This document shows, in pieces, positions 23,852-39,904 of a DNA stretch of 64,000 bases (position 1 is its first letter; each line of letters begins with the position of its first letter). The position numbers and the translations under genes were made by a program. The notes beneath the pieces were generated by a model. The model worked only from the letters and a program-made list of their open reading frames with translations, did no database searches and was not told the origin of the DNA. Origin of the DNA: a phage; sequence record PX418922.1; one strand, 5' to 3'.

Positions 23852-24208
23852 ATGAAAAAATTAATCTTAGCCACATTGCTGGCTACCGTAAGCTTCACCA
23901 CTTACGCTCAAAAATTTGTAGCAGTTAAAACAGATATTGGTAAAGATGTTGTGATCACAGGCAACAAGTTTTACTATACACCTGGAAATGGTGTTCTAGA
24001 AGAGTGTAAAGATGTTGAGGCATATACAGGAAAAGAAGATAACACGGAACGTCCTTTTTATTCGATTATAGCCACTTGCAAAAATGAAATAGTAGCTATT
24101 AAACAATATAAAGATGCCCCTGGAGGAGAATACTTATTAGTCAAGAATATTAAGAGTGAAAAAACTGCAAAGTTTACAGTAATTATTTTAAAAGGAGAAA
24201 CGTTCTAA
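23852..24208 (+). CDS. secreted hypothetical protein
   Basis: Start moved to MKKLILATLLATVSFTTYA signal peptide. Confidence 0.5.
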   Translation: MKKLILATLLATVSFTTYAQKFVAVKTDIGKDVVITGNKFYYTPGNGVLEECKDVEAYTGKEDNTERPFYSIIATCKNEIVAIKQYKDAPGGEYLLVKNIKSEKTAKFTVIILKGETF

Positions 24209-25347
24209 TGAAATACACTATTTTTGGAGATGTGGCTGTTGTAAATAAGGAATATGGTGTTGAAGCTAATAAACTTCCTGCTGGAGTTTGGGTTGTCAAC
24301 TGCGATCCGCACGGTAACTACTCTTTAGTGCGTGGCGAAAGTTTCTCTCTTCCGAACACTCTTTATGGGGAAACTAAAGACCGCGCCGCACATGTTATTA
24401 AAACATTTGCTCGTCGTAGTAAAGAAGGTAAAAATACTGGGGTGTTACTGACAGGCACAAAAGGCAGTGGTAAGACGATGTTAGCTAAACTAATTAGCAT
24501 GTCCCTAATGTCCACAGAAGGTTTAGGTATTCCAACCATTTTGGTTACACAGCCTTACACAGATGCTGGCTTCTTAGAATTTATGAGTAAAATTACAGAT
24601 CGTGCTGTTGTTTTATTTGACGAATTTGATAAAGTGTACGCTAAGAAAGAAGATCAGGAAGCACTGTTGACCTTGTTGGATGGAACAGGAAGTGGGAATA
24701 AACTTTACATCCTAACTAAAAATAGTGGTTATATCTCGGAATATTTTGTAAACCGTCCTAGTCGTATCTATTACAGTTTCAATTACGATAAACTGTCTAG
24801 TGAAACTATGTTAGATTACTTGGATAAGAACTTGGTAAATAAAAAACACGTAGATAACTTCCAACGTTTATGGGATGTTAGCACAGAGTTGTCTTTCGAT
24901 GTTATTCAAGGTATTGTAGAAGAATTGAATTTCTATCCAAAAATGACTTTTAAAGAATGTCTTGAAATGATGGGTATTTCTTTAGGCAACGATGCTAAAT
25001 GGAATGTGGCTTCTATCGTAGCTAATGGCAAAACTCTGAAGGTGAATTGGATCAATAACTGGCACGACTTCACCCCTACTAAGTTTTTGTCGGGTGCTTG
25101 TTCCCTGAACATCTATCTGCAAAGCTTGAAAGATGATGAAGTGGAAGCAATGGAAACCAACAGTTATGTTATCCTGGATGAAGATGGTGATCCACATATT
25201 GATCTATGTGCAACTGCTGATGGTCTAACTTGTGATCTGATTGAAGGTGGTAAGATCCTGGTGATGAGCACTACACCAGGAAACACTCTGCGAGTGGTGC
25301 TGGAGCCTGTAACACAACGTTCCACCACATTAGGTAGCGTGTTCTAA
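24208..25347 (+). CDS. AAA+ family ATPase
   Basis: Walker A GTKGSGKT and Walker B VVLFDEFDK. Confidence 0.6.
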   Translation: MKYTIFGDVAVVNKEYGVEANKLPAGVWVVNCDPHGNYSLVRGESFSLPNTLYGETKDRAAHVIKTFARRSKEGKNTGVLLTGTKGSGKTMLAKLISMSLMSTEGLGIPTILVTQPYTDAGFLEFMSKITDRAVVLFDEFDKVYAKKEDQEALLTLLDGTGSGNKLYILTKNSGYISEYFVNRPSRIYYSFNYDKLSSETMLDYLDKNLVNKKHVDNFQRLWDVSTELSFDVIQGIVEELNFYPKMTFKECLEMMGISLGNDAKWNVASIVANGKTLKVNWINNWHDFTPTKFLSGACSLNIYLQSLKDDEVEAMETNSYVILDEDGDPHIDLCATADGLTCDLIEGGKILVMSTTPGNTLRVVLEPVTQRSTTLGSVF

Positions 25348-25366
25348 TAAGTTGAGATTTATTAAA

Positions 25367-25388
25367 CCCGCTTCGGCGGGTTTTCTCT
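25367..25388 (+). terminator. intrinsic terminator
   Basis: CCCGC-TTCG-GCGGG hairpin followed by TTTTCTCTT. Confidence 0.6.
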
Positions 25389-25422
25389 TGTATGGATATC
25401 AGATTAATAAGAGGAGCAACAG

Positions 25423-26409
25423 ATGGCAGCACCAAAATCATGGGAACAATATAAAGAAGAGTGTCAACCAATAGCAGAGAGTAAGCAAATCCAAATCTTA
25501 GGATGGACGGGAGAATGGAAAGGGGTTAATACAAAACTTGATTTGTTGTGTCATTGTGGTTATAAATGGGATACTACAAGTATTAACAATTTTAAACGTG
25601 GTAGTGGTTGTCCTTTATGTGGATATGAGAATACAAGGAAGGCACAAACAATATCCGACGATCAACATATTGCAGATTTCTTTTCTACAGGGAAGTTTAA
25701 GGAAGGCACTATTTTCACCAATACGGGGGAACGTAAAGGGTGTGATCCAGTATGGATGATTCAGTGTCCTGTTTGTTCTCATGATGAATATGTTAAAGCT
25801 GGACTATGTGATGGTAAGTTTTATATGACGCGTGGCAATCTTAAATATGGATACTTACCCTGCCGTTGCTCTGCATCTTATAGGTATACAGCGGAACAGA
25901 TTACGTATAAAGTAAGAAAGAAAATAGAAAAGAAAGGGTATGTTTGGATAGGATGGATTACCAAACCATCTTCTATAGGTAAGTTTAAATATATATGTAA
26001 GAGTCATGGGGAACAAAAAGGAACTGCAAACAACCTTTTAAACATAGGACAAGGTTGTCCGCAGTGTGCTAACAAAAATCAACAACAAGCCTACATTAAT
26101 TATATTTACGATGAGCAAGATATTATCTGTGCACTGAAGTTTGGTATTGCTAATAATAGTAATCGCCGTATGAAAGAACAAAATAGTCATAATGTGTTCA
26201 CTATGAAACAACACCAAGTGTGGCACTTCCCTACTGTTAAGCAATGCCAAAACGCAGAGAAATATTGCAAGAAGGTGTTAAACACGGAAGCAGTGAGCAA
26301 ATATTCTATGCAAGATGGCTACACAGAAACAGTGGAGCTATCTTGCATGGCATCCGTACAGAATATTTATAAACTTTATGGTGGAACATTACAGGAGGAA
26401 ACATGTTAG
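25423..26409 (+). CDS. zinc-ribbon repeat protein with C-terminal GIY-YIG / T5orf172-like domain, copy 1
   Basis: Repeated CxxC pairs; C-terminal YINYIY-(10)-KFGIA...R; paralog at 42111-43091. Confidence 0.45.
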   Translation: MAAPKSWEQYKEECQPIAESKQIQILGWTGEWKGVNTKLDLLCHCGYKWDTTSINNFKRGSGCPLCGYENTRKAQTISDDQHIADFFSTGKFKEGTIFTNTGERKGCDPVWMIQCPVCSHDEYVKAGLCDGKFYMTRGNLKYGYLPCRCSASYRYTAEQITYKVRKKIEKKGYVWIGWITKPSSIGKFKYICKSHGEQKGTANNLLNIGQGCPQCANKNQQQAYINYIYDEQDIICALKFGIANNSNRRMKEQNSHNVFTMKQHQVWHFPTVKQCQNAEKYCKKVLNTEAVSKYSMQDGYTETVELSCMASVQNIYKLYGGTLQEETC

Positions 26410-26768
26410 TTGACGTTCAAATTATGCGCAACGAAAGAATGGACTTCTTTGAAGCAGTAGAGAAACATCTGATCAGATGGGACTATGAATTTGTTCCTGC
26501 TGGATGTGGACCAGTAGAGCATTTAGCGGAAGACGACGATGTATACATGATCATTCGTCAAGTGTACCAGACAGACCAGTGTGAAGAAACGCCCGAACTG
26601 ATTTTGTTTGAGTGTAAAGATCTTGCAAAATATTTTGACTATGGCGGAAAAGAGGGTCATAATCTCTCCAGATACAATAAACGTCTACTTATCTTAGACT
26701 ACATGCGGAACAACAAACACAAACTCATCGACGCAGACGCAGTTTATGGCTACTGGTGGATGGATTAA
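26403..26768 (+). CDS. hypothetical protein (121 aa)
   Basis: ORF track. Confidence 0.5.
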   Translation: MLVDVQIMRNERMDFFEAVEKHLIRWDYEFVPAGCGPVEHLAEDDDVYMIIRQVYQTDQCEETPELILFECKDLAKYFDYGGKEGHNLSRYNKRLLILDYMRNNKHKLIDADAVYGYWWMD

Positions 26769-26781
26769 CAAAGGAGAAACT

Positions 26782-26970
26782 ATGGCACGTTTAGCAGATA
26801 ACCCTGTATTCTACCCCGTTCTTGATCTTTATGATGAATTGACATATGTTGTGGAGCGGTATAATTACAATGAAGACCTCTTGGAGACAAACCTTAAAGT
26901 AGTTCTGATGAAAGCCTATCAGCAAGGGCAACGTGAAATTTTGGAGAGTATGAAAAATGCGAATAACTGA
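26782..26970 (+). CDS. small hypothetical protein
   Basis: Start moved to ATG after AAAGGAG. Confidence 0.45.
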   Translation: MARLADNPVFYPVLDLYDELTYVVERYNYNEDLLETNLKVVLMKAYQQGQREILESMKNANN

Positions 26971-27499
26971 TGATTATGTATTCTTCTTTTCACATAAAGA
27001 TGTTTTTAGTAATTGGTATATTGCACCCTTTACAGAAACCGAACCAGGTTACAATCAGACATTTAATTGTGTCGAACAATACATGATGTGGCGTAAAGCT
27101 TTGCTTTTTAATGACCACAACACTGCACAGGCTATTCTGACTCATAGTTTGATACGGAAAGATGAGAAGATCCAAGCTTATTACAAACGTATGGGTAAGG
27201 CAGTGTCGGATTTTGATAACAACGTATGGGAAGAGAACCGTGAGCGTATTGTTATGCGAGGTTTATGCTTGAAATATGTACAGAATCCAGATTTGTATGC
27301 AGACTTACACCTTTACCAATACAAAACGTTTGTTGAAGCAAGCCCCTACGATAAGGTTTACGGAATTGGAATGGGGATGTATGAACCAGGGGTGCTAAAC
27401 CCTGCCACCTGGAAAGGGCAGAATCTTTTAGGTAAATATCATAATAAACTGATCGAAATACTTTTCCCAGACAAAATACCGCAAAGACGATATTTGTGA
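26957..27499 (+). CDS. NADAR (YbiA-like) domain protein
   Basis: FFFSHKDVFSNWY near N-terminus and YGIGMGMYEPG near C-terminus resemble the NADAR/DUF1768 fold. Confidence 0.5.
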   Translation: MRITDDYVFFFSHKDVFSNWYIAPFTETEPGYNQTFNCVEQYMMWRKALLFNDHNTAQAILTHSLIRKDEKIQAYYKRMGKAVSDFDNNVWEENRERIVMRGLCLKYVQNPDLYADLHLYQYKTFVEASPYDKVYGIGMGMYEPGVLNPATWKGQNLLGKYHNKLIEILFPDKIPQRRYL

Positions 27500-27740
27500 T
27501 ATTTTAACTTTTTTCATTTTTAGAACAAAGGTGTCACTTTGTAGCACAGAAATAAGGCTCCTACAGCACCGTAGAGAGCCTGTTATTTTGTCCTATACAA
27601 ACCCTTGTCTTTTTCAGTTTGCATCACTAGGATTCGATCTAAGTAGGTTCCTGAAGGTCTACCAATAAGATTAAAGGTTATCTCAAATTACCACTACCTG
27701 TTATCTCAAAAATTCCTCAAATTATTTAAACTTTTTAAGA

Positions 27741-27920
27741 ATTTACAAAAGTGAAAGTTGAAAACCAAAATTTAAAGTTTAGGAAAATTATCTTAAAATG
27801 TCAGATACAAAACAAAACTCAAAAGTCAAGGAAAATTTTAAAAATTTTGCGCGCCCACAGTATTTAAAGTTTTTTTGCTTTTACAAAAATGAAAGTACAA
27901 AAGCAAAATTTAAAGTTTAC
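27741..27920. repeat. two ~40-bp imperfect direct repeats in an AT-rich intergenic region
   Basis: TTTACAAAAGTGAAAGTTGAAAACCAAAATTTAAAGTTTA (27741-27780) and TTTTACAAAAATGAAAGTACAAAAGCAAAATTTAAAGTTTAC (27879-27920). Confidence 0.6.
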
Positions 27921-27967
27921 AAAAATTTATGCAGATGGGAATGAGAAGAGTTCTCATGTGGAAATGC

Positions 27968-28046
27968 AAATGATAATGATTCGCATTTAGGTTTATAAAT
28001 GAGATTGATTCTTATTTAATAAAGTAAATGATAATCATTCTCATTT
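27968..28046. promoter_or_regulatory. three Fur-box-like palindromic sites
   Basis: AAATGATAATGATTCGCATTT, AAATGAGATTGATTCTTATTT, AAATGATAATCATTCTCATTT; core GATAATCATTCTC is 1 mismatch from the Fur-box 3' 13-mer. Confidence 0.4.
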
Positions 28047-28304
28047 AGAGAATGACGCGCAGGGGCGGTGTTTGTCTCGCGCTCCCGTGTCCCCTCGCCA
28101 TGTACTAAGAATAACAGATCCAGCCAGGAAAGCAAGCGATTATTTTATCTTTACATTTCTTTACAAATATATAGCGCCCAGCCTACCGGCGATCAACCTT
28201 CCAACCAGTGCCCCTGGTATGTTAGCCCCGCCTTTACGCCGTGGGGTGGCGCTTCCTCTTCTGTATGTAAAACAGTATAAGCCCTATCCCTGGGCTTGTC
28301 AAGA

Positions 28305-28571
28305 TTATTTTTTGTTTTCTTGCCAGGTCAGGACACCTAGCCAAAAATGAATATCACCTTTTCCCCAATGTGGTATATTGCTTTCTTTCCCACCTTCACG
28401 CGCCCAGGTAAAACCGCCCGTGTAACTTTGTAATTGATAACTATCCTCGACCTTATAATCTGATAGGTTGAGAACGGTTTCAACCTTTAAGCCCGTTGCG
28501 CTTGCTACCTGGTGCACCGTGCCGCCTTGCCAGCCCAATGAGTGCATAAGATGTAATGTAGTATTTGTCAT
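28305..28571 (-). CDS. hypothetical protein (88 aa), GC-rich
   Basis: ORF track; AAGGG upstream; lies in an otherwise non-coding stretch, so uncertain. Confidence 0.3.
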   Translation of the reverse strand: MTNTTLHLMHSLGWQGGTVHQVASATGLKVETVLNLSDYKVEDSYQLQSYTGGFTWAREGGKESNIPHWGKGDIHFWLGVLTWQENKK

Positions 28572-28680
28572 GGTGTCGCCCTTTCTTTGTTGTGCGCCCT
28601 GGTTGGCGCGGTAGAAAGATGATAGCCCTTTCCTTTATATATAGCAAGCAAAAAGAAAATAAAAAAGATTGAAAAAGTGG

Positions 28681-28738
28681 TTGACGTTCGCCAGGTGGCG
28701 GCATAATATTTACCACGTAGCGCGGCAATGGTGCCGCT
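28681..28738 (+). promoter_or_regulatory. island promoter + 5' leader hairpin (P1)
   Basis: TTGACG-N17-TAATAT-TTACCAC-GTAG then hairpin GCGGCA-ATGG-TGCCGC. Confidence 0.55.
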
Positions 28739-28758
28739 CACTATTTGGAGTTAAGATC

Positions 28759-28956
28759 ATGGCAACATTGCACATTGTGGCGAAAGCTGGACAAATCAAC
28801 GTAATAGTAAACGGTTTTACTGAGTTCAGTCATCCCCAGGATGATCATGAAACGGTTTTATCTTTCATTGATTCCCTGTTAGAAATGGGAGTCATTACAG
28901 AAGACCAGCACGCTACAAAATGCAAGCGCGTTAATCAAATTGCAGGGATAGAATAA
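28759..28956 (+). CDS. island small protein (65 aa)
   Basis: ATG after GGAG; ORF-track frame trimmed so the start is downstream of the leader hairpin. Confidence 0.5.
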   Translation: MATLHIVAKAGQINVIVNGFTEFSHPQDDHETVLSFIDSLLEMGVITEDQHATKCKRVNQIAGIE

Positions 28957-28962
28957 AAAGTA

Positions 28963-29017
28963 TTGACAACAAACAACAACCTGATAAGATGTATCACATA
29001 GGGGCGACAAGCGCCCC
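28963..29017 (+). promoter_or_regulatory. island promoter + 5' leader hairpin (P2)
   Basis: TTGACA-N16-TAAGAT-GTATCAC-ATAG then hairpin GGGGCG-ACAA-GCGCCCC. Confidence 0.55.
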
Positions 29018-29041
29018 GCCTAACAGAAGAGAGAAATCATC

Positions 29042-29314
29042 ATGGCATCATATAGCGCAACAATGATCGTAACTGGCACCACTGGTAAACCTATGAGCGG
29101 TGGCGGATCTTTCGCTAATATTAATATTGACGGGCGCTTATCCCTGGACGCAGCGATCACCGTGGCGCGGGAAACATTTAAGAAAGAATGTAAATTCAAT
29201 AAACAAGATTATCTCGGTTTCGCTATTGAAAAAACCGCGCGCTTTGTTGATTATAAAAGCCCGAAAATGGTTGATACTACACTGAAAGCGCAAGATGTAG
29301 CCTTTTTGCTTTAA
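29042..29314 (+). CDS. island small protein (90 aa), Gly-rich N-terminus
   Basis: ORF track; AGAGAGA RBS. Confidence 0.55.
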   Translation: MASYSATMIVTGTTGKPMSGGGSFANINIDGRLSLDAAITVARETFKKECKFNKQDYLGFAIEKTARFVDYKSPKMVDTTLKAQDVAFLL

Positions 29315-29317
29315 GGC

Positions 29318-29371
29318 TTGACATTAACGAATAATTTGTTAATATGTTACATAAAGCGGGAATAGTTCCCG
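29318..29371 (+). promoter_or_regulatory. island promoter + 5' leader hairpin (P3)
   Basis: TTGACA-N16-TAATAT-GTTACAT then hairpin GCGGGAA-TAG-TTCCCGC. Confidence 0.55.
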
Positions 29372-29390
29372 CTATTTGTAAGGTGGTAGA

Positions 29391-29648
29391 ATGTTTTACA
29401 TCAAATTAAAAGGTCACGTGATCGCGTTCAAAGATAACGCTTTTTACAGATTAGCAAAATATGCGTTAATACATCCCCACTATGTTTATATAAGGGGGCG
29501 TGATGAAATAAATATTTTTGATCAAACAACATGCGAAAACATCGAGATCCGCAAGGTTGGCGTACGTGATTATCGTACATCTTTCTACCCTTGCAAGGAT
29601 TCAGCAAGTCTTTTTAAAGTATGCCAATTGTTGAAAAAAGGTGGTTAA
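29391..29648 (+). CDS. island small protein (85 aa)
   Basis: ORF track. Confidence 0.55.
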   Translation: MFYIKLKGHVIAFKDNAFYRLAKYALIHPHYVYIRGRDEINIFDQTTCENIEIRKVGVRDYRTSFYPCKDSASLFKVCQLLKKGG

Positions 29649-29649
29649 T

Positions 29650-30207
29650 ATGGGCCGCGAATATGTGATCCAGTCTTGGGTAAAACATGAAGCAGATGAT
29701 CCGCGCATCATTCCCGATCATCTTATCGATGAATCCACGGGATATAGCGGTGAGCAAATAGGTAACAGATTAGCACGTAGTAACGGCAACGTAAAAGCGC
29801 GTTATGTGCGCCCTGGCTGGCTGGCAAATGGTAACGCTGATTTATCCAGTGCGGAAGATGCGAGCGACGGCGCGAAAGATAATCCTTTGTACAAAATTGA
29901 TCCGGCTTTTCGTGTCCTGGATGAATACCCCAGCAAGATAGCGGCGCTCGATCAGGCCCTGGAAAGTAAGCGCATCACCTGGACCGCTTACAACATGGCA
30001 AAAAACGTACTTGATGGTAAATTGATTCAAGCTGAAAGAAAATTAGCCAAAATTGCAGCCATAACCCAGGAGGAAGACGAGGAGACAACGGAAGAGGAAG
30101 AGTACGAAGAGATCCCGCCGTTGTTGTGTGTTGATGCTTTCCCTGATTATCAGCCGACAGAGGAAGAAAAAAGGATCGCACTAGAAAACTTTGAAAATAG
30201 TCTTTGA
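29650..30207 (+). CDS. island protein with acidic C-terminal tail (185 aa)
   Basis: ATG after AAAGGTGG; C-terminus EEDEETTEEEEYEE; no own promoter. Confidence 0.5.
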   Translation: MGREYVIQSWVKHEADDPRIIPDHLIDESTGYSGEQIGNRLARSNGNVKARYVRPGWLANGNADLSSAEDASDGAKDNPLYKIDPAFRVLDEYPSKIAALDQALESKRITWTAYNMAKNVLDGKLIQAERKLAKIAAITQEEDEETTEEEEYEEIPPLLCVDAFPDYQPTEEEKRIALENFENSL

Positions 30208-30260
30208 CATATCGCCGCCACTGGCATAATATTTACCACGTAGGGCGGCAATGGTGCCGC
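30204..30260 (+). promoter_or_regulatory. island promoter + 5' leader hairpin (P4)
   Basis: TTGACA-N17-ATAATA-TTTACCAC-GTAG then GCGGCA-ATGG-TGCCGC. Confidence 0.55.
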
Positions 30261-30289
30261 TCATAGTGAAATTATGCAAGAGGTTTGCA

Positions 30290-30385
30290 ATGATTAATAA
30301 AGAAAATAGCTTGACGGTTGGAACGATTAACGCTATCATTCTTGCCGTTCCATTTTGGATTGTATTAGCGGCTATTATTTTCTAA
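30290..30385 (+). CDS. hydrophobic micro-protein (31 aa)
   Basis: MINKENSLTVGTINAIILAVPFWIVLAAIIF; only coding capacity downstream of P4. Confidence 0.35.
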   Translation: MINKENSLTVGTINAIILAVPFWIVLAAIIF

Positions 30386-30394
30386 AAAATATTC

Positions 30395-30455
30395 TTGACA
30401 ACGTTTTTTAATCTGATAAGATGTATCACATAGGGCGGCGGAATACTTCCCCGCC
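30395..30455 (+). promoter_or_regulatory. island promoter + 5' leader hairpin (P5)
   Basis: TTGACA-N16-TAAGAT-GTATCAC-ATAG then GGCGG..GGAA-TAC-TTCC.CCGCC. Confidence 0.55.
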
Positions 30456-30476
30456 AAAACAAAAAAGGGTAACACA

Positions 30477-30839
30477 ATGAGCAAGCAAATCAATACTATC
30501 ATGTTTAATCTGGTATCTTTCCGCGATGATATGAAAAATTTACCACGTGAAACGGTTGATATTCATGTTTCAGCTTATCGCGCCCTTATTGATATGTTAC
30601 CGCTAAAACGTGATCAACATGCCGCTAATATGATGCTTAATGCTATGCTTAAAAAGATGATTCAAACGGATCTCACCCTGGCGTATGAGTATCAAGGGCG
30701 CTTATATGCAACTTACAACAAGGCGGTACCTGGTCTGGGAAGTACCGAAGAGTTGCACGGCTTAAACCTGGATCAAAACACTTGGGATAGTATGCGCCGC
30801 GTTATGGTATGGGCCGAAAGCGGTAAAATTTACGAATAA
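30477..30839 (+). CDS. island small protein (120 aa)
   Basis: ORF track. Confidence 0.55.
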   Translation: MSKQINTIMFNLVSFRDDMKNLPRETVDIHVSAYRALIDMLPLKRDQHAANMMLNAMLKKMIQTDLTLAYEYQGRLYATYNKAVPGLGSTEELHGLNLDQNTWDSMRRVMVWAESGKIYE

Positions 30840-30844
30840 AAACG

Positions 30845-30902
30845 GTTGACATTGTTTAAAATTCTAGTATAGTTTACCACATAGGGCGGGAAGTGGTTTC
30901 CC
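30845..30902 (+). promoter_or_regulatory. island promoter + 5' leader hairpin (P6)
   Basis: TTGACA-N16-TATAGT-TTACCAC-ATAG then GCGGGAA-GTGG-TTTCCCGC. Confidence 0.55.
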
Positions 30903-30927
30903 GCCAACAATGAAAAAGGTTATCATC

Positions 30928-31293
30928 ATGGCTATTAATATTAATGTTTCCGCTTATGCTACCCTGGCTAACACGGCTAAAATTGAATTATCCAGCATTG
31001 AGGCGGTGCATATTAGCGCCCGTCGCTGGTTTCAACGGTCCTACGGTAACACATATTTTTCTTTAATGGTTGACGTTGAGATCGGCGGTAAACTGATCGA
31101 GGTGGTTAACGTTCCGTTTCAATATGGCTATGGTGATCATTTTGATACCGTCGCCCTAGAAGAGTTTAGCAAGGTTATCAACCTGGAAGGTAAAGAGTTT
31201 TCAAATTATGCCTACCTTTCCCGTTTTTGCCGTGACAATGGGATCACTGTATACAGTCATGCGAGCGATGTAAAACGTAAAAAAGATTTATAA
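30928..31293 (+). CDS. island small protein (121 aa)
   Basis: Second in-frame ATG chosen (AAAAAGG upstream); the first ATG abuts the hairpin. Confidence 0.5.
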   Translation: MAININVSAYATLANTAKIELSSIEAVHISARRWFQRSYGNTYFSLMVDVEIGGKLIEVVNVPFQYGYGDHFDTVALEEFSKVINLEGKEFSNYAYLSRFCRDNGITVYSHASDVKRKKDL

Positions 31294-31299
31294 AAAGCA

Positions 31300-31360
31300 T
31301 TGACAGCACGAATAAAAAGAGTAAACTGTATTACATAGAGAGCGGGAACACTTCCCGCCT
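31300..31360 (+). promoter_or_regulatory. island promoter + 5' leader hairpin (P7)
   Basis: TTGACA-N17-TAAACT-GTATTAC-ATAG then GCGGGAA-CAC-TTCCCGC. Confidence 0.55.
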
Positions 31361-31382
31361 CACTGAAAAAGAGAGAAAAATC

Positions 31383-31622
31383 ATGGCTAAATCTAAAATG
31401 TACAACGGTCACAAAAACAAAACTCATTGGAATGTAAGCCTTTGGATTAATAACGATGAATCGTTATACCGGTTGGCCCAAGATTTTATTAACGCTAATG
31501 CTAATCGTAATGATGCGGCGCGGGATATGATGCTTTTTCTGGAACAAACTGGACAAGATAAAACGCCAGACGGTTTCAAATATAGCACTACTGCGATCCG
31601 TGCCGCGATGGTTGGAATGTAA
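31383..31622 (+). CDS. island small protein (79 aa)
   Basis: ORF track. Confidence 0.55.
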   Translation: MAKSKMYNGHKNKTHWNVSLWINNDESLYRLAQDFINANANRNDAARDMMLFLEQTGQDKTPDGFKYSTTAIRAAMVGM

Positions 31623-31631
31623 TAAAAACAG

Positions 31632-31689
31632 TTGACAACGTTTAAAATTAGTGTAAGATGTATCACATAGGGCGGGAAGTGGTTTCCCG
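31632..31689 (+). promoter_or_regulatory. island promoter + 5' leader hairpin (P8)
   Basis: TTGACA-N16-TAAGAT-GTATCAC-ATAG then GCGGGAA-GTGG-TTTCCCGC. Confidence 0.55.
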
Positions 31690-31712
31690 CCAAAACAAAG
31701 AGATTAAAGATT

Positions 31713-31940
31713 ATGGCTATCAATATTGTTCGCGTATCCGGCACCGTTGGCACTTCCCAGGTTATTGCAGTTGTAACAAACAAAAAGATTAATGATGTAT
31801 GTGAGATCTTGAATAAGTGGGCTATTGCTAATTTTGGGGAATATGCAAGCGTCGAGTACATCGAATCCTACCAGGTGCCAACCATCAGCCTAACCGATCT
31901 CAACGTTGATCGCCTGTTATGCCTGGATGAATTGATCTGA
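31713..31940 (+). CDS. island small protein (75 aa)
   Basis: ORF track. Confidence 0.55.
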   Translation: MAINIVRVSGTVGTSQVIAVVTNKKINDVCEILNKWAIANFGEYASVEYIESYQVPTISLTDLNVDRLLCLDELI

Positions 31941-31949
31941 AAAAGATTG

Positions 31950-32006
31950 TTGACACCGGAAAGAAAAAGAGTAAACTGTATTACGTAGGGCGGCAATGGT
32001 GCCGCT
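31950..32006 (+). promoter_or_regulatory. island promoter + 5' leader hairpin (P9)
   Basis: TTGACA-N17-TAAACT-GTATTAC-GTAG then GCGGCA-ATGG-TGCCGC. Confidence 0.55.
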
Positions 32007-32030
32007 CACAACAAAAGAGAGATTATTACG

Positions 32031-32243
32031 ATGGCTAATATCCGCACACTGTTAAAAAATGCAAGTCAAGTTTTATTTTCAGATGACGAGTATTTCAATA
32101 AAGACATTACAGGCGTGAAGAATATCAAAGATGTAAAAAGTGTTATGGGTATATATTGCAATGTTAAACGTGTTGGAACGTTCGGTGATAAAGTATTGTA
32201 CCAATCAGGTGATTACAATTTTACTTTGACGATTATTTCATAA
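32031..32243 (+). CDS. island small protein (70 aa)
   Basis: ORF track. Confidence 0.55.
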   Translation: MANIRTLLKNASQVLFSDDEYFNKDITGVKNIKDVKSVMGIYCNVKRVGTFGDKVLYQSGDYNFTLTIIS

Positions 32244-32248
32244 AACGC

Positions 32249-32310
32249 TTGCAATACTGCAAAAATAAAGTAAACTGTATTACATCAAGGCGGCGGAATG
32301 GTCCACCGCC
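32249..32310 (+). promoter_or_regulatory. island promoter + 5' leader hairpin (P10)
   Basis: TTGCAA-N16-TAAACT-GTATTAC-ATCAA then GGCGGCGGA-ATGG-TCCACCGCC. Confidence 0.5.
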
Positions 32311-32334
32311 TAACAAAGAGAAGAGGAAAATATC

Positions 32335-37950: not shown

Positions 37951-39529
37951 GCCCGAACAATGTTGATAGATTCCGCCTATGGAAAACCGACACAGAACAA
38001 AACTGAATAAATAGCGGTATCAAGCTAATCAACCATTAAATGAATAACCATACCTCCCAGGGTAACAGGCTGTTAGAGAGCCATTTAAAGCGGTTAAAAT
38101 CGATCAACAACCAACAACAAACCATCAAAAACACCCTTTTACCTCCTTTCTAGTGCAATGATAACCATTATCATCTATCCATGTTTATCTATACAATATA
38201 AGTGCATAATTATAATGTTGATAATAGTTCGCAACAACTAACCAACAAACAACATAAAACAATAAGCAAACTAATCATAATCAAAGGAATAATAGCAAGA
38301 TGATTGATAACAACAAACAATCAAACCATGATGAATACTAAGCAAGATAACGATAACACGACAAAACAACCAACTAACGAACAATAACAAACGAAACCAT
38401 TAAAATAATAACTATTGCCATAATAGTGACTAAATGAAATCATTACAAAACGAATCATTCACAGAGTCATCATTAGCACGCTATGCCGGACACATAGCGA
38501 GCTAATAATAAGCCAACTACACCCCAACAATCATAACCATCGGTGATGGTTATTTCTTGTTACTGCGTAGCTTGCAATAATTGCAAGCGTAATGACGCTT
38601 ACACTTATTGCGCTGGCTTATTATTAGCATTATATGTAATTACCAAGATCATAACATTAGCGCAATAACAATAATCATTGTGGTAATTACGTAAGGAAAC
38701 AATTAGCATGGCAATAATTATGGGGCAATGGGAGGATGATTATCATCATTCCGATACATTGCACACTATGCACATAATAGAATAAAAAGCAATAATTTTG
38801 GGGGCGAAATGTTACCGCCACAGGCGGGAATGTTGAGCACTAAGAAAAGAGATAAACCTTAATCATGGGGGCGTAAATATCCGCAGGATTGCCAACGGCG
38901 ATCCGGTAGGATGTTGAGCATCTTCTCTTAAACGTAAATAAAATCAGAAAATTCTTGATTTATTTTAGTTTTTATGTTAATAAACGTTTAAATAATAATC
39001 ATTCTCATATAAATAATAGTCTGCTTGTCATGAGCGGGATTAGTTGACAATGTTCCGTCATATGATGAAGTTGCCAACCTATTGATAAATAAGTGTTTGT
39101 GTGATTTATAATCAAGTGGCCCACCTTGTCGCTACGTTGGCATAAGCCTTGCATAAGTCATTGAATACGAATGATAATTATTCTCATTCGCATGATATTT
39201 GGGAATTGTCGCTGCGTGGACCTGACGGCCCGAAAATTCGCGTTAAGCACTTCTTACGTATGCGCCATGATTTTTGCCATATGATATTGATTCTATTAGA
39301 TATTCTTGCCATGATTGCCATGAAACAGGGTGTCCCGAAATAATCTTTCCCCGTAGATATTTTGGGTTACTTTTTATACAAGAGTGGGGTGTCAAAAATA
39401 ATCGGTATATATGGGATAATTGATAGGAATCCCCTATGATAATTCGATTGTAATTCCCTGAGATTGATCGTATGATGTTGGTGATTGATGATTGCCATGA
39501 AAGATGGCTAACGATGAGAGGAGATTATC
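37951..39529. other. 1.6-kb non-coding, repeat-rich region with strand-skewed A+C content
   Basis: No ORF of 60 aa or more; CAACAA/ACAAAC low-complexity runs; palindromes; Fur-box-like sites at 38991-39010 and 39169-39189. Confidence 0.5.
38570..38588. repeat. 19-bp palindrome
   Basis: GCTTGCAAT-A-ATTGCAAGC, 9-bp arms. Confidence 0.6.
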
Positions 39530-39904
39530 ATGCAAGAGAGTAAAAATATTCCGTTGAGCAGTGCAGCATTGCTTCGCTTCTATAAAGCATGGATTGCCAA
39601 CTATCCTGCAATGAATCGCACAACGAGTGGCTTATGTGGTTGTCTGGTGGATTATGTAGATGATTTTGTTGGTGAGACAACTAGAGAAGAAGATAGAAGA
39701 TGGCGGGATAGTTTGTTGGACCGTTTGAAATATGAAATGAGGAGACAATTTACATGTGCAGGGCTGGACTATAATCTTCCGTTCAATGCAGATTGCATGG
39801 ATTACCTTTCAGAGTGTATAAACTTGGCGTGTCATACCAACACGTTACGTCTTCAGTGGGTGAAAGACAGAATTGAAGATGCAAATAATGTTTGCATTGA
39901 ATAA
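39530..39904 (+). CDS. hypothetical protein, paralog family A copy 1
   Basis: Shares Y..W......GLC.CL....PF.....WVKD pattern with 44137, 49930, 51236. Confidence 0.5.
   Translation: MQESKNIPLSSAALLRFYKAWIANYPAMNRTTSGLCGCLVDYVDDFVGETTREEDRRWRDSLLDRLKYEMRRQFTCAGLDYNLPFNADCMDYLSECINLACHTNTLRLQWVKDRIEDANNVCIE

Follow-up and report, generated by a model that had tools for sequence, protein, structure and literature searches.

The window (the whole 64,000-nucleotide stretch of phage sequence record PX418922.1 that was analysed) carries a gene for a NADAR-domain protein that is probably a stand-alone ADP-ribosyl glycohydrolase countering the DarTG1 defence, a member of the AdfN class. Its most likely function would be to strip ADP-ribose from guanine bases of phage DNA, because the protein is orthologous to the NADAR bas60_0111 of phage Bas60 and keeps most of the residues that contact ADP-ribose in a characterised NADAR. 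This reading gives a probable function, DarTG1 counter-defence, to a gene that has been labelled 'hypothetical protein' or, wrongly, 'GTP cyclohydrolase II'. Phages of the phAPEC8-like group are frequent candidates for therapy against pathogenic E. coli, and knowing which host defences they evade would allow better prediction of host range. Since the family, its chemistry and the role of the close orthologue are already published, the assignment raises no new question. The features discussed below are collected in Table 1.

Table 1. Positions of the NADAR gene and of the sequence features around it, numbered from the first nucleotide of the window
Feature	Position	Strand	Details
NADAR-domain protein gene	26957..27499	+	ATG-to-TGA ORF, 180 aa, ~21.5 kDa; stop codon counted in the coordinates
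Shine-Dalgarno-like GGAGAG	26943..26948	+	8 nt 5' of the NADAR ATG; read from the sequence
Intrinsic terminator	27555..27591	+	hairpin of 9 bp, one base bulged (27555-27581), followed by UGUUAUUUUG
AT-rich direct repeats	27718-27927		GC ~0.28
Four palindromes spaced 29 bp	27940-28048		29-bp-period array called at 27968-28049; Fur-box-like
GC-richer noncoding patch	28050-28300		GC 0.45-0.48
Sigma-70 promoter-like sequence	28302-28274	-	TTGACA, 17 nt, TATACT

A megablast search with positions 24000-31000 matched 144 phage records, the best of them (92-97% identity) from Phapecoctavirus, and we assign the window to this genus of the subfamily Stephanstirmvirinae, which holds the phAPEC8-like lytic E. 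coli myoviruses of about 150 kb. The NADAR ORF is the counterpart of phAPEC8_00256, with 97.8% protein identity. Using tblastn, we found the protein at full length and at least 80% identity in 71 phage records; the next sequence group, at about 58% identity, was the sister genus Justusliebigvirus. Below 60% identity there were 648 records from large myoviruses of Staphylococcus, Listeria, Enterococcus, Bacillus, Klebsiella and other hosts, a spread that fits the reported concentration of NADARs in myoviruses (PMC9503650). Comparison with phAPEC8, anhysbys and TSP7_1 gave 12-13 synonymous and 4 non-synonymous differences, or a dN/dS of about 0.07; the gene is real and under strong purifying selection. 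Most phAPEC8-like GenBank records label the gene 'hypothetical protein' or 'GTP cyclohydrolase II', and several relatives carry the latter name or 'YbiA-like N-glycosidase'. Records with the cyclohydrolase label bear the note 'Uncharacterized domain COG3236', and we rejected this label as derived from the COG3236 description of RibA-fused NADAR domains elsewhere; Pfam finds no cyclohydrolase domain in the protein. In the paper listed by a literature search on Phapecoctavirus and DarTG, the genus was tied just to another anti-defence gene, Atd1, and NADAR went unmentioned.

The reading frame is intact over 180 codons, and the GGAGAG motif upstream of its ATG is a putative ribosome-binding site. 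The start codon lies inside the 3' end of the preceding small ORF (26746-26970), an overlap of 14 nt that suggests coupled translation within an operon. Start/stop overlaps of this kind are usual inside phage operons. Both Met1 and the MRxTD N-terminus that it begins are kept among the aligned homologues. The original prediction had named the gene as encoding a YbiA-like NADAR with an N-terminal FxSNxY signature and a glycine-rich C-terminal segment. The N-terminal block is indeed that of NADAR proteins, '(F/L)SN(F/W)(Y/H)', although the literal pattern was one residue off, the real sequence being F17-S18-N19-W20-Y21 (FSNWY). As proposed, the C-terminal segment is glycine-rich (Y135-G-I-G-M-G ... 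W152-K-G-Q-N-L-L-G159), and G136, W152, G154, N156 and G159 are, along with S18 of the N-terminal block, invariant in an alignment of 39 homologues.

For family membership, the profile search that had been suggested as a check gave a clear answer: the protein matched Pfam NADAR (PF08719/DUF1768) over profile positions 3-154 of 163 with an E-value of 2e-35 and 122.9 bits, against a gathering cut-off of 35.1. NCBIfam TIGR02464 (E 5.9e-32, 111 bits, cut-off 73.7) and PHROG 1017 (E 2.2e-51) agreed, and the sole PDB match by sequence was 8BAU, the Phytophthora nicotianae NADAR bound to ADP-ribose (E 1.1e-14). An AlphaFold2 model built from the 39-sequence alignment was confident (pLDDT 95.5, pTM 0.89) and has the alpha+beta fold of NADAR proteins, in which two small beta-sheets flank a helical core. 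When this model was compared with the PDB by Foldseek, just two matches were significant, 8BAU (TM 0.78) and E. coli YbiA (2B3W, TM 0.69). The protein thus belongs, close to certainty, to the NADAR superfamily. The DS32_2 NADAR anti-phage protein model NF053876 scored below threshold (17.6 bits, cut-off 240), and PADLOC gave no DarG1-type match; its sole match was PDC-M42C, the NADAR component of an uncharacterised candidate defence system.

Focusing on the active site, we mapped residues onto 8BAU through the HMMER alignment, applying an offset because the database chain is numbered two above the numbering of the paper. In the P. nicotianae protein (PnNADAR), ADP-ribose is contacted by K50, R79, W89, R93, W133, D130 on the pyrophosphate, and by E43 and E125 on the distal ribose (PMC11543638). 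The residues E43, K50, R79, W89, R93, E125, D130 and W133 correspond to E40, K47, K81, W91, R95, E127, D132 and Y135 of the window protein. Six are therefore kept (E40, K47, W91, R95, E127 and D132), and among the 39 homologues E40, K47, W91, E127 and D132 are invariant; the two substitutions at ligand contacts, R79 to K81 and W133 to Y135, are both conservative. In the multiple alignment, E40 and K47 share columns with E36 and K43 of T4 gp30.3 (AdfN-T4), two residues whose mutation impairs counter-defence (PMC11825919).

The position of PnNADAR E125 separates the subfamilies, with Glu marking the YbiA type, Asp the BC4488/DarG1 type linked to DarT, and His the T4-type phage NADARs (PMC11543638). 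E127 of the window protein falls in this column, as does the Glu of E. coli YbiA; the residue there in T4 gp30.3 is His. We thus place the protein, as judged from its aligned residues, in the YbiA subfamily in the classification sense of de Souza and Aravind. As a class label, YbiA-like was therefore correct because of this Glu; as a statement of close kinship it did not hold, since the identity to E. coli YbiA is 28% over 96 residues (E 6e-6), about half the protein. A DarG1/BC4488-type antitoxin was ruled out by the Glu at the E125 position, the missing N-terminal extension and the lack of a toxin gene among the neighbouring ORFs scanned.

The closest characterised relative was found in Justusliebigvirus. 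An alignment over 172 aa gives 58% identity (E 9e-69) between the window protein and bas60_0111 of Bas60 (PaulScherrer); a further NADAR of this genus in the BASEL collection, bas61_0107 of EmilieFrey (Bas61), is about 99% identical to bas60_0111. Common to the window protein and bas60_0111 are a clade-specific insertion of 7 residues (around residues 68-74) and the change from Trp to Tyr. Gene order is the same in both genera: an AAA ATPase, a CapR/T5orf172 endonuclease-like gene, the NADAR gene and a noncoding gap of about 0.8 kb, beyond which lie an 88-aa minus-strand ORF and then many small genes. On account of the 58% identity, the common insertion and Trp-to-Tyr change, and the same genome position, we assign the window protein as an orthologue of bas60_0111. 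We in turn take bas60_0111 to be the published AdfN-Bas60, because it is the single NADAR match in the Bas60 genome.

AdfN-Bas60 was described by Johannesman et al. 2025 (PMC11825919). Bas60, Bas61 and Bas62 encode one NADAR, given this name. In E. coli it needed no other phage factor to neutralise the toxicity of DarT1, and on DarTG1 hosts RB69, T5 and Bas25 formed plaques again when it was supplied; it was of no help to T5 against DarTG2, which modifies thymidine. The activity was demonstrated by ectopic expression. Cleavage of ADP-ribose from guanine in DNA, DarT1 neutralisation and phage rescue were reported for AdfN-Bas60 and also for AdfN-Bas32 and AdfN-T4 (PMC11825919).

From these comparisons, the best functional analogue of the window protein appears to be AdfN-Bas60, not YbiA. 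Each is a stand-alone phage NADAR, about 180 aa long, from the subfamily Stephanstirmvirinae; gene order and the downstream noncoding region agree, and in both the insertion at about 68-74 and the Tyr at the PnNADAR W133 position accompany the YbiA-type Glu. They differ in genus (Justusliebigvirus for AdfN-Bas60, Phapecoctavirus here), in 42% of residues, and by 7 residues in the length of the loop at positions 27-35. The window differs from the AdfN-Bas60 locus, too, in what separates the ATPase gene from the NADAR gene: one more endonuclease-like gene along with two small ORFs. An identity of 58% may leave room for a shift in specificity.

Other known NADARs resemble the protein less. The P. 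nicotianae NADAR, an orphan that hydrolyses ADP-ribosyl-guanine (Schuller et al. 2023, PMC11543638), is the best structural match at 28% identity; its ADP-ribose-contacting residues correspond one to one with those of the window protein, and the Glu at the E125 position is found in both. It is, however, eukaryotic with its own N-terminal and internal extensions, whereas the window protein has Lys for R79, Tyr for W133 and an insertion elsewhere. E. coli YbiA shares the fold, the YbiA-type Glu and the FSNF/W motif but is without the loop between the GIG and WKG motifs, and its gene sits between rhlE and dinG. It is an N-glycosidase of riboflavin intermediates from a LexA-controlled operon (operon context, PMC11125620), and it gave cells no protection against DarT1 (PMC11125620). 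Although the window protein passes TIGR02464, we found neither the close kinship nor the riboflavin and LexA-operon context of an E. coli YbiA orthologue.

AdfN-T4 (T4 gp30.3) and DarG1, the DarT1-linked NADAR antitoxin, belong to the same superfamily as the window protein and have the same proposed job, removal of ADP-ribose from guanine in DNA. The catalytic Glu/Lys pair of T4 gp30.3 is the aligned E36 and K43 noted above; BLASTP detected no similarity between it and the window protein, and the relation is visible just in the multiple alignment. T4 gp30.3 has His and DarG1 Asp where the window protein has E127. AdfN-T4 needs the context of a T-even phage, whereas AdfN-Bas60 does not (PMC11825919). 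The DarG1 gene adjoins darT1 and its product is extended at the N-terminus by two strands and a helix; the window protein, by contrast, begins at the first core strand in the AlphaFold2 model and lacks such an extension.

A role against DarTG1 would, by analogy with AdfN-Bas60, unfold as follows. Some E. coli strains carry the DarTG1 toxin-antitoxin defence; on infection of such a host, DarT1 would put ADP-ribose on guanine bases of the phage DNA and block replication. The phage NADAR, expressed from an operon with host-type promoter-like sequences upstream, would bind the ADP-ribose via E40, K47, K81, W91, R95, D132 and Y135 and cut the N-glycosidic bond that joins ribose to guanine, where E40 and E127 sit beside the ribose. 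The DNA would then be back to normal and replication could continue, making the phage NADAR an 'orphan antitoxin' of the AdfN class. The operon may be expressed early, as suggested by several sigma-70-like promoter matches on the plus strand upstream (21741, 23095, 23409, 23706 and 26635). A scan of ten neighbouring ORFs, reaching about 3 kb to either side, turned up no ADP-ribosyltransferase domain; within this distance the protein is an orphan, encoded by the phage without an adjacent DarT-type toxin. All four types of NADAR from E. coli and phages tested by Cihlova et al. hydrolysed ADP-ribosyl-guanine, and none of the four ADP-ribosyl-thymidine (PMC11125620). Despite their activity in vitro, neither E. 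coli YbiA nor T4 gp30.3 rescued cells from DarT1 on its own (PMC11125620), so such activity is no guarantee of function in cells.

We considered three other roles for the protein. It may have a broader or different ADP-ribose target, such as ADP-ribosyl-cytidine, ADP-ribosylated RNA or soluble TIR/NADase signals, and counter defences other than DarTG1, which we judge unlikely. Judging by genomic context, Iyer et al. argue that low-molecular-weight ADP-ribose derivatives are the substrates of most phage NADARs (PMC9503650), and YbiA-type and some other NADARs also strip ADP-ribose from cytidine (PMC12945103). The 7-residue insertion of the clade sits beside the phosphate-binding helix and a Tyr replaces the ligand-stacking Trp near the ligand site, changes that could alter specificity, and PDC-M42C, the sole PADLOC match, is a component of a candidate defence system. 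The same insertion and Tyr, however, are present in AdfN-Bas60, the closest characterised relative, which does neutralise DarT1 in cells. As to soluble immune signals, we know of no direct evidence for any NADAR acting on them, which also counts against this target. The more specific proposal that the Phapecoctavirus/Justusliebigvirus clade consists of broad nucleic-acid ADP-ribose erasers (guanine together with cytidine and/or RNA), or of degraders of soluble immune signals, we regard as doubtful; if true, it would mean that the phage is protected from several defence systems and not from DarTG1 alone.

The protein is very unlikely to be a housekeeping N-glycosidase like E. coli YbiA, hydrolysing riboflavin intermediates as metabolic damage control. 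The score of 111 bits against TIGR02464, named 'riboflavin biosynthesis intermediates N-glycosidase' (cut-off 73.7), the YbiA-type Glu at 127 and the 'GTP cyclohydrolase II' or 'YbiA-like N-glycosidase' annotations of relatives all point in this direction, but the identity to E. coli YbiA is just 28% over 96 residues, and the cyclohydrolase label stems from COG3236, with no such domain in the window protein. The ten neighbouring ORFs scanned, which include phage genes of unknown function, the AAA ATPase and an endonuclease-like gene, have no riboflavin-related domain, and a lytic phage would, we reason, draw no obvious benefit from the activity. That the protein lacks any enzymatic role and is an inactive or purely structural remnant is hardly credible: nothing specific favours it beyond the two substituted ligand contacts (K81 and Y135), and it is opposed by the dN/dS of about 0.07, the invariance of E40, K47, W91, E127 and D132 in 39 homologues, the full-length ORF in the 71 phage records with at least 80% identity and the confident fold prediction (pLDDT 95.5). 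Removal of ADP-ribose from guanine, directed against DarTG1, thus stays the probable role.

Downstream of the gene, the original prediction had placed a repeat region and then the boundary of an island. The NADAR ORF does end its operon and is followed by an ORF-poor, repeat-rich stretch, as stated, but the boundary was not borne out: the stretch is a conserved noncoding region whose position is shared by each of the five related phage loci that we compared, drawn from two genera. A predicted intrinsic terminator closes the operon ending in the NADAR gene. Its RNA fold reaches -18.6 kcal/mol, where shuffled sequences average -7.2 (z = -5.0), and the same sequence is annotated in phAPEC8 as predicted by ARNold and kept in the aligned Phapecoctavirus relatives. 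The whole arrangement beyond the gene was found in phAPEC8, anhysbys, TSP7_1, Bas60 and Bas61. From one of the two genera to the other the GC-rich patch hardly changes, and it is better conserved than the NADAR gene, whose proteins are just 58% identical; blastn detected it in 234 records overall, with 73-86% identity in rV5-like phages of Klebsiella, Salmonella (PVP-SE1), Cronobacter, Pectobacterium, Proteus and Erwinia. We therefore rejected a horizontally acquired island, the region being at the same place in both genera and its GC-rich part conserved across rV5-like phages. None of those more distant genera had a NADAR gene within 1.5 kb of the element, which makes its proximity to NADAR a feature of the two Stephanstirmvirinae genera alone, and we saw no functional link between the element and the gene.

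The conserved GC-rich noncoding element is more curious than the NADAR gene and deserves a look of its own. A protein-coding role was rejected on the basis of single-base indels between genera and local ORFs that are not protein-like. We found no tRNA and no credible Rfam match in the downstream noncoding region, and single-sequence RNA folding was no better than for shuffled sequences on either strand. With RNAalifold, alignments of 9 and of 22 sequences yielded weak consensus energies, and covariation added no net bonus. Next to an internal hairpin, a single flanking base pair covaries (A..T or G..C), with no exception among the 22 sequences in which it is readable; overall, support for a structured RNA is weak. 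Among 24 distinct versions of the element, taken from phage records and IMG/VR, most have a Fur-box-like palindrome directly before the conserved block, where it would overlap a weak plus-strand promoter, and at the other end a variable hairpin with flanks that make up a well-conserved minus-strand sigma-70 promoter pointing into the element. An iron-controlled sense/antisense RNA pair, or an element acting at the DNA level such as a replication origin, are candidates for what it represents.

A literature search on Fur boxes in lytic phages and on noncoding RNAs in these subfamilies found nothing relevant. The Fur-box consensus of E. coli is GATAATGATAATCATTATC. At 28024-28042, the fourth palindrome of the window, GTAAATGATAATCATTCTC, matches this consensus at 16 of 19 positions, the only match of that quality in the window, where 0.09 would be expected. 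A looser motif derived from the local copies gave 14 matches, or about 8 distinct sites with both strands counted; the expectation was 1.1. Another ORF-free region, near 38157-39297, contains four of these looser-motif sites.

The GC-rich element lying 3′ of the NADAR gene showed almost no variation between Phapecoctavirus and Justusliebigvirus, and 234 records, from rV5-like phages infecting many different hosts, matched it with 73-86% identity. A protein-coding role was ruled out by single-base indels. The element is probably what the original prediction described as an "island". Promoter-like sites on both strands are directed into it, and one base pair inside it covaries without exception in 22 readable sequences; RNA structure is weak overall, and searches of the element found no Rfam match and no tRNA.

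Features identified around the NADAR gene and in the second ORF-free region
Feature	Position	Basis
Endonuclease-like ORF, two genes upstream of NADAR gene	25423-26409	CapR-homology, T5orf172, PHROG 681
AT-rich repeat stretch, GC ~0.28	27718-27927	direct repeats
Fur-box-like palindrome array (n=4, 29-bp spacing)	27940-28048	likeness to E. coli Fur box
GC-rich noncoding element, ~250 bp	28050-28300	conservation across phages
Small-gene modules, examples	28963, 30395, 30846, 31300, 31632, 31950	
Second long stretch without credible ORFs	about 38150-39530	
Further Fur-box-like sites in second ORF-free region (n=4)	38157-38175, 38991-39009, 39170-39188, 39280-39297	locally derived motif

For the palindromes preceding the element, 16 of the 19 positions of the E. 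coli Fur-box consensus are matched by the copy at 28024-28042, the sole match at that level in the window (0.09 expected). Five similar palindromes occupy the equivalent place in Bas60 and Bas61, and in most of the more distant element versions compared a palindrome of this kind is kept directly upstream of the element. A motif derived from the local copies gave approximately 8 distinct sites in the window, against 1.1 expected, with 4 of them in the second ORF-free region, where several Fur-box-like palindromes occur together with low-complexity A/C-rich sequence (aacaacaaac...). The AT-rich stretch contains a 72-nt direct repeat, present twice with 82% identity, and a 29-nt unit (AAAACCAAAATTTAAAGTTTAGGAAAATT) that occurs three times. 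The stretch is kept in the aligned Phapecoctavirus relatives and in part in Justusliebigvirus. It may serve for DNA unwinding or protein binding.

Further downstream (28680-32320), nearly all small genes are preceded by a repeated module consisting of a promoter and then a GC hairpin: TTGACA, 16 nt, TAAGAT or TAAACT, followed by GTATCACATAGGGCGG...CCGCC. In phAPEC8, the corresponding sites carry "PHIRE" and "MEME" promoter annotations. The hairpin is conserved and lies immediately 3′ of the presumed start site.

Upstream of the NADAR gene, the endonuclease-like ORF has three CapR-homology stretches and a match to PHROG 681 ("endonuclease"); its similarity to T5orf172 is weak, scoring 18.7 bits against a Pfam cut-off of 20 bits. 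The ORF is 987 nt long in the window, and its length in relatives ranges from 978 nt (Bas61) through 1185 nt (phAPEC8) and 1209 nt (anhysbys) to 1404 nt (Bas60); this variation suggests a homing-endonuclease-like gene.

Among database records, several that carry the name "Campylobacter phage", MG065650 and MG065639 among them, showed 94-99% identity to the searched regions, as did E. coli phages of Phapecoctavirus and Justusliebigvirus, and "Acinetobacter phage vB_AbaM_ABPW7" fell within the same range; the stated hosts of these records look doubtful. The NADAR gene is called "GTP cyclohydrolase II" in many relatives, which is a mis-annotation.
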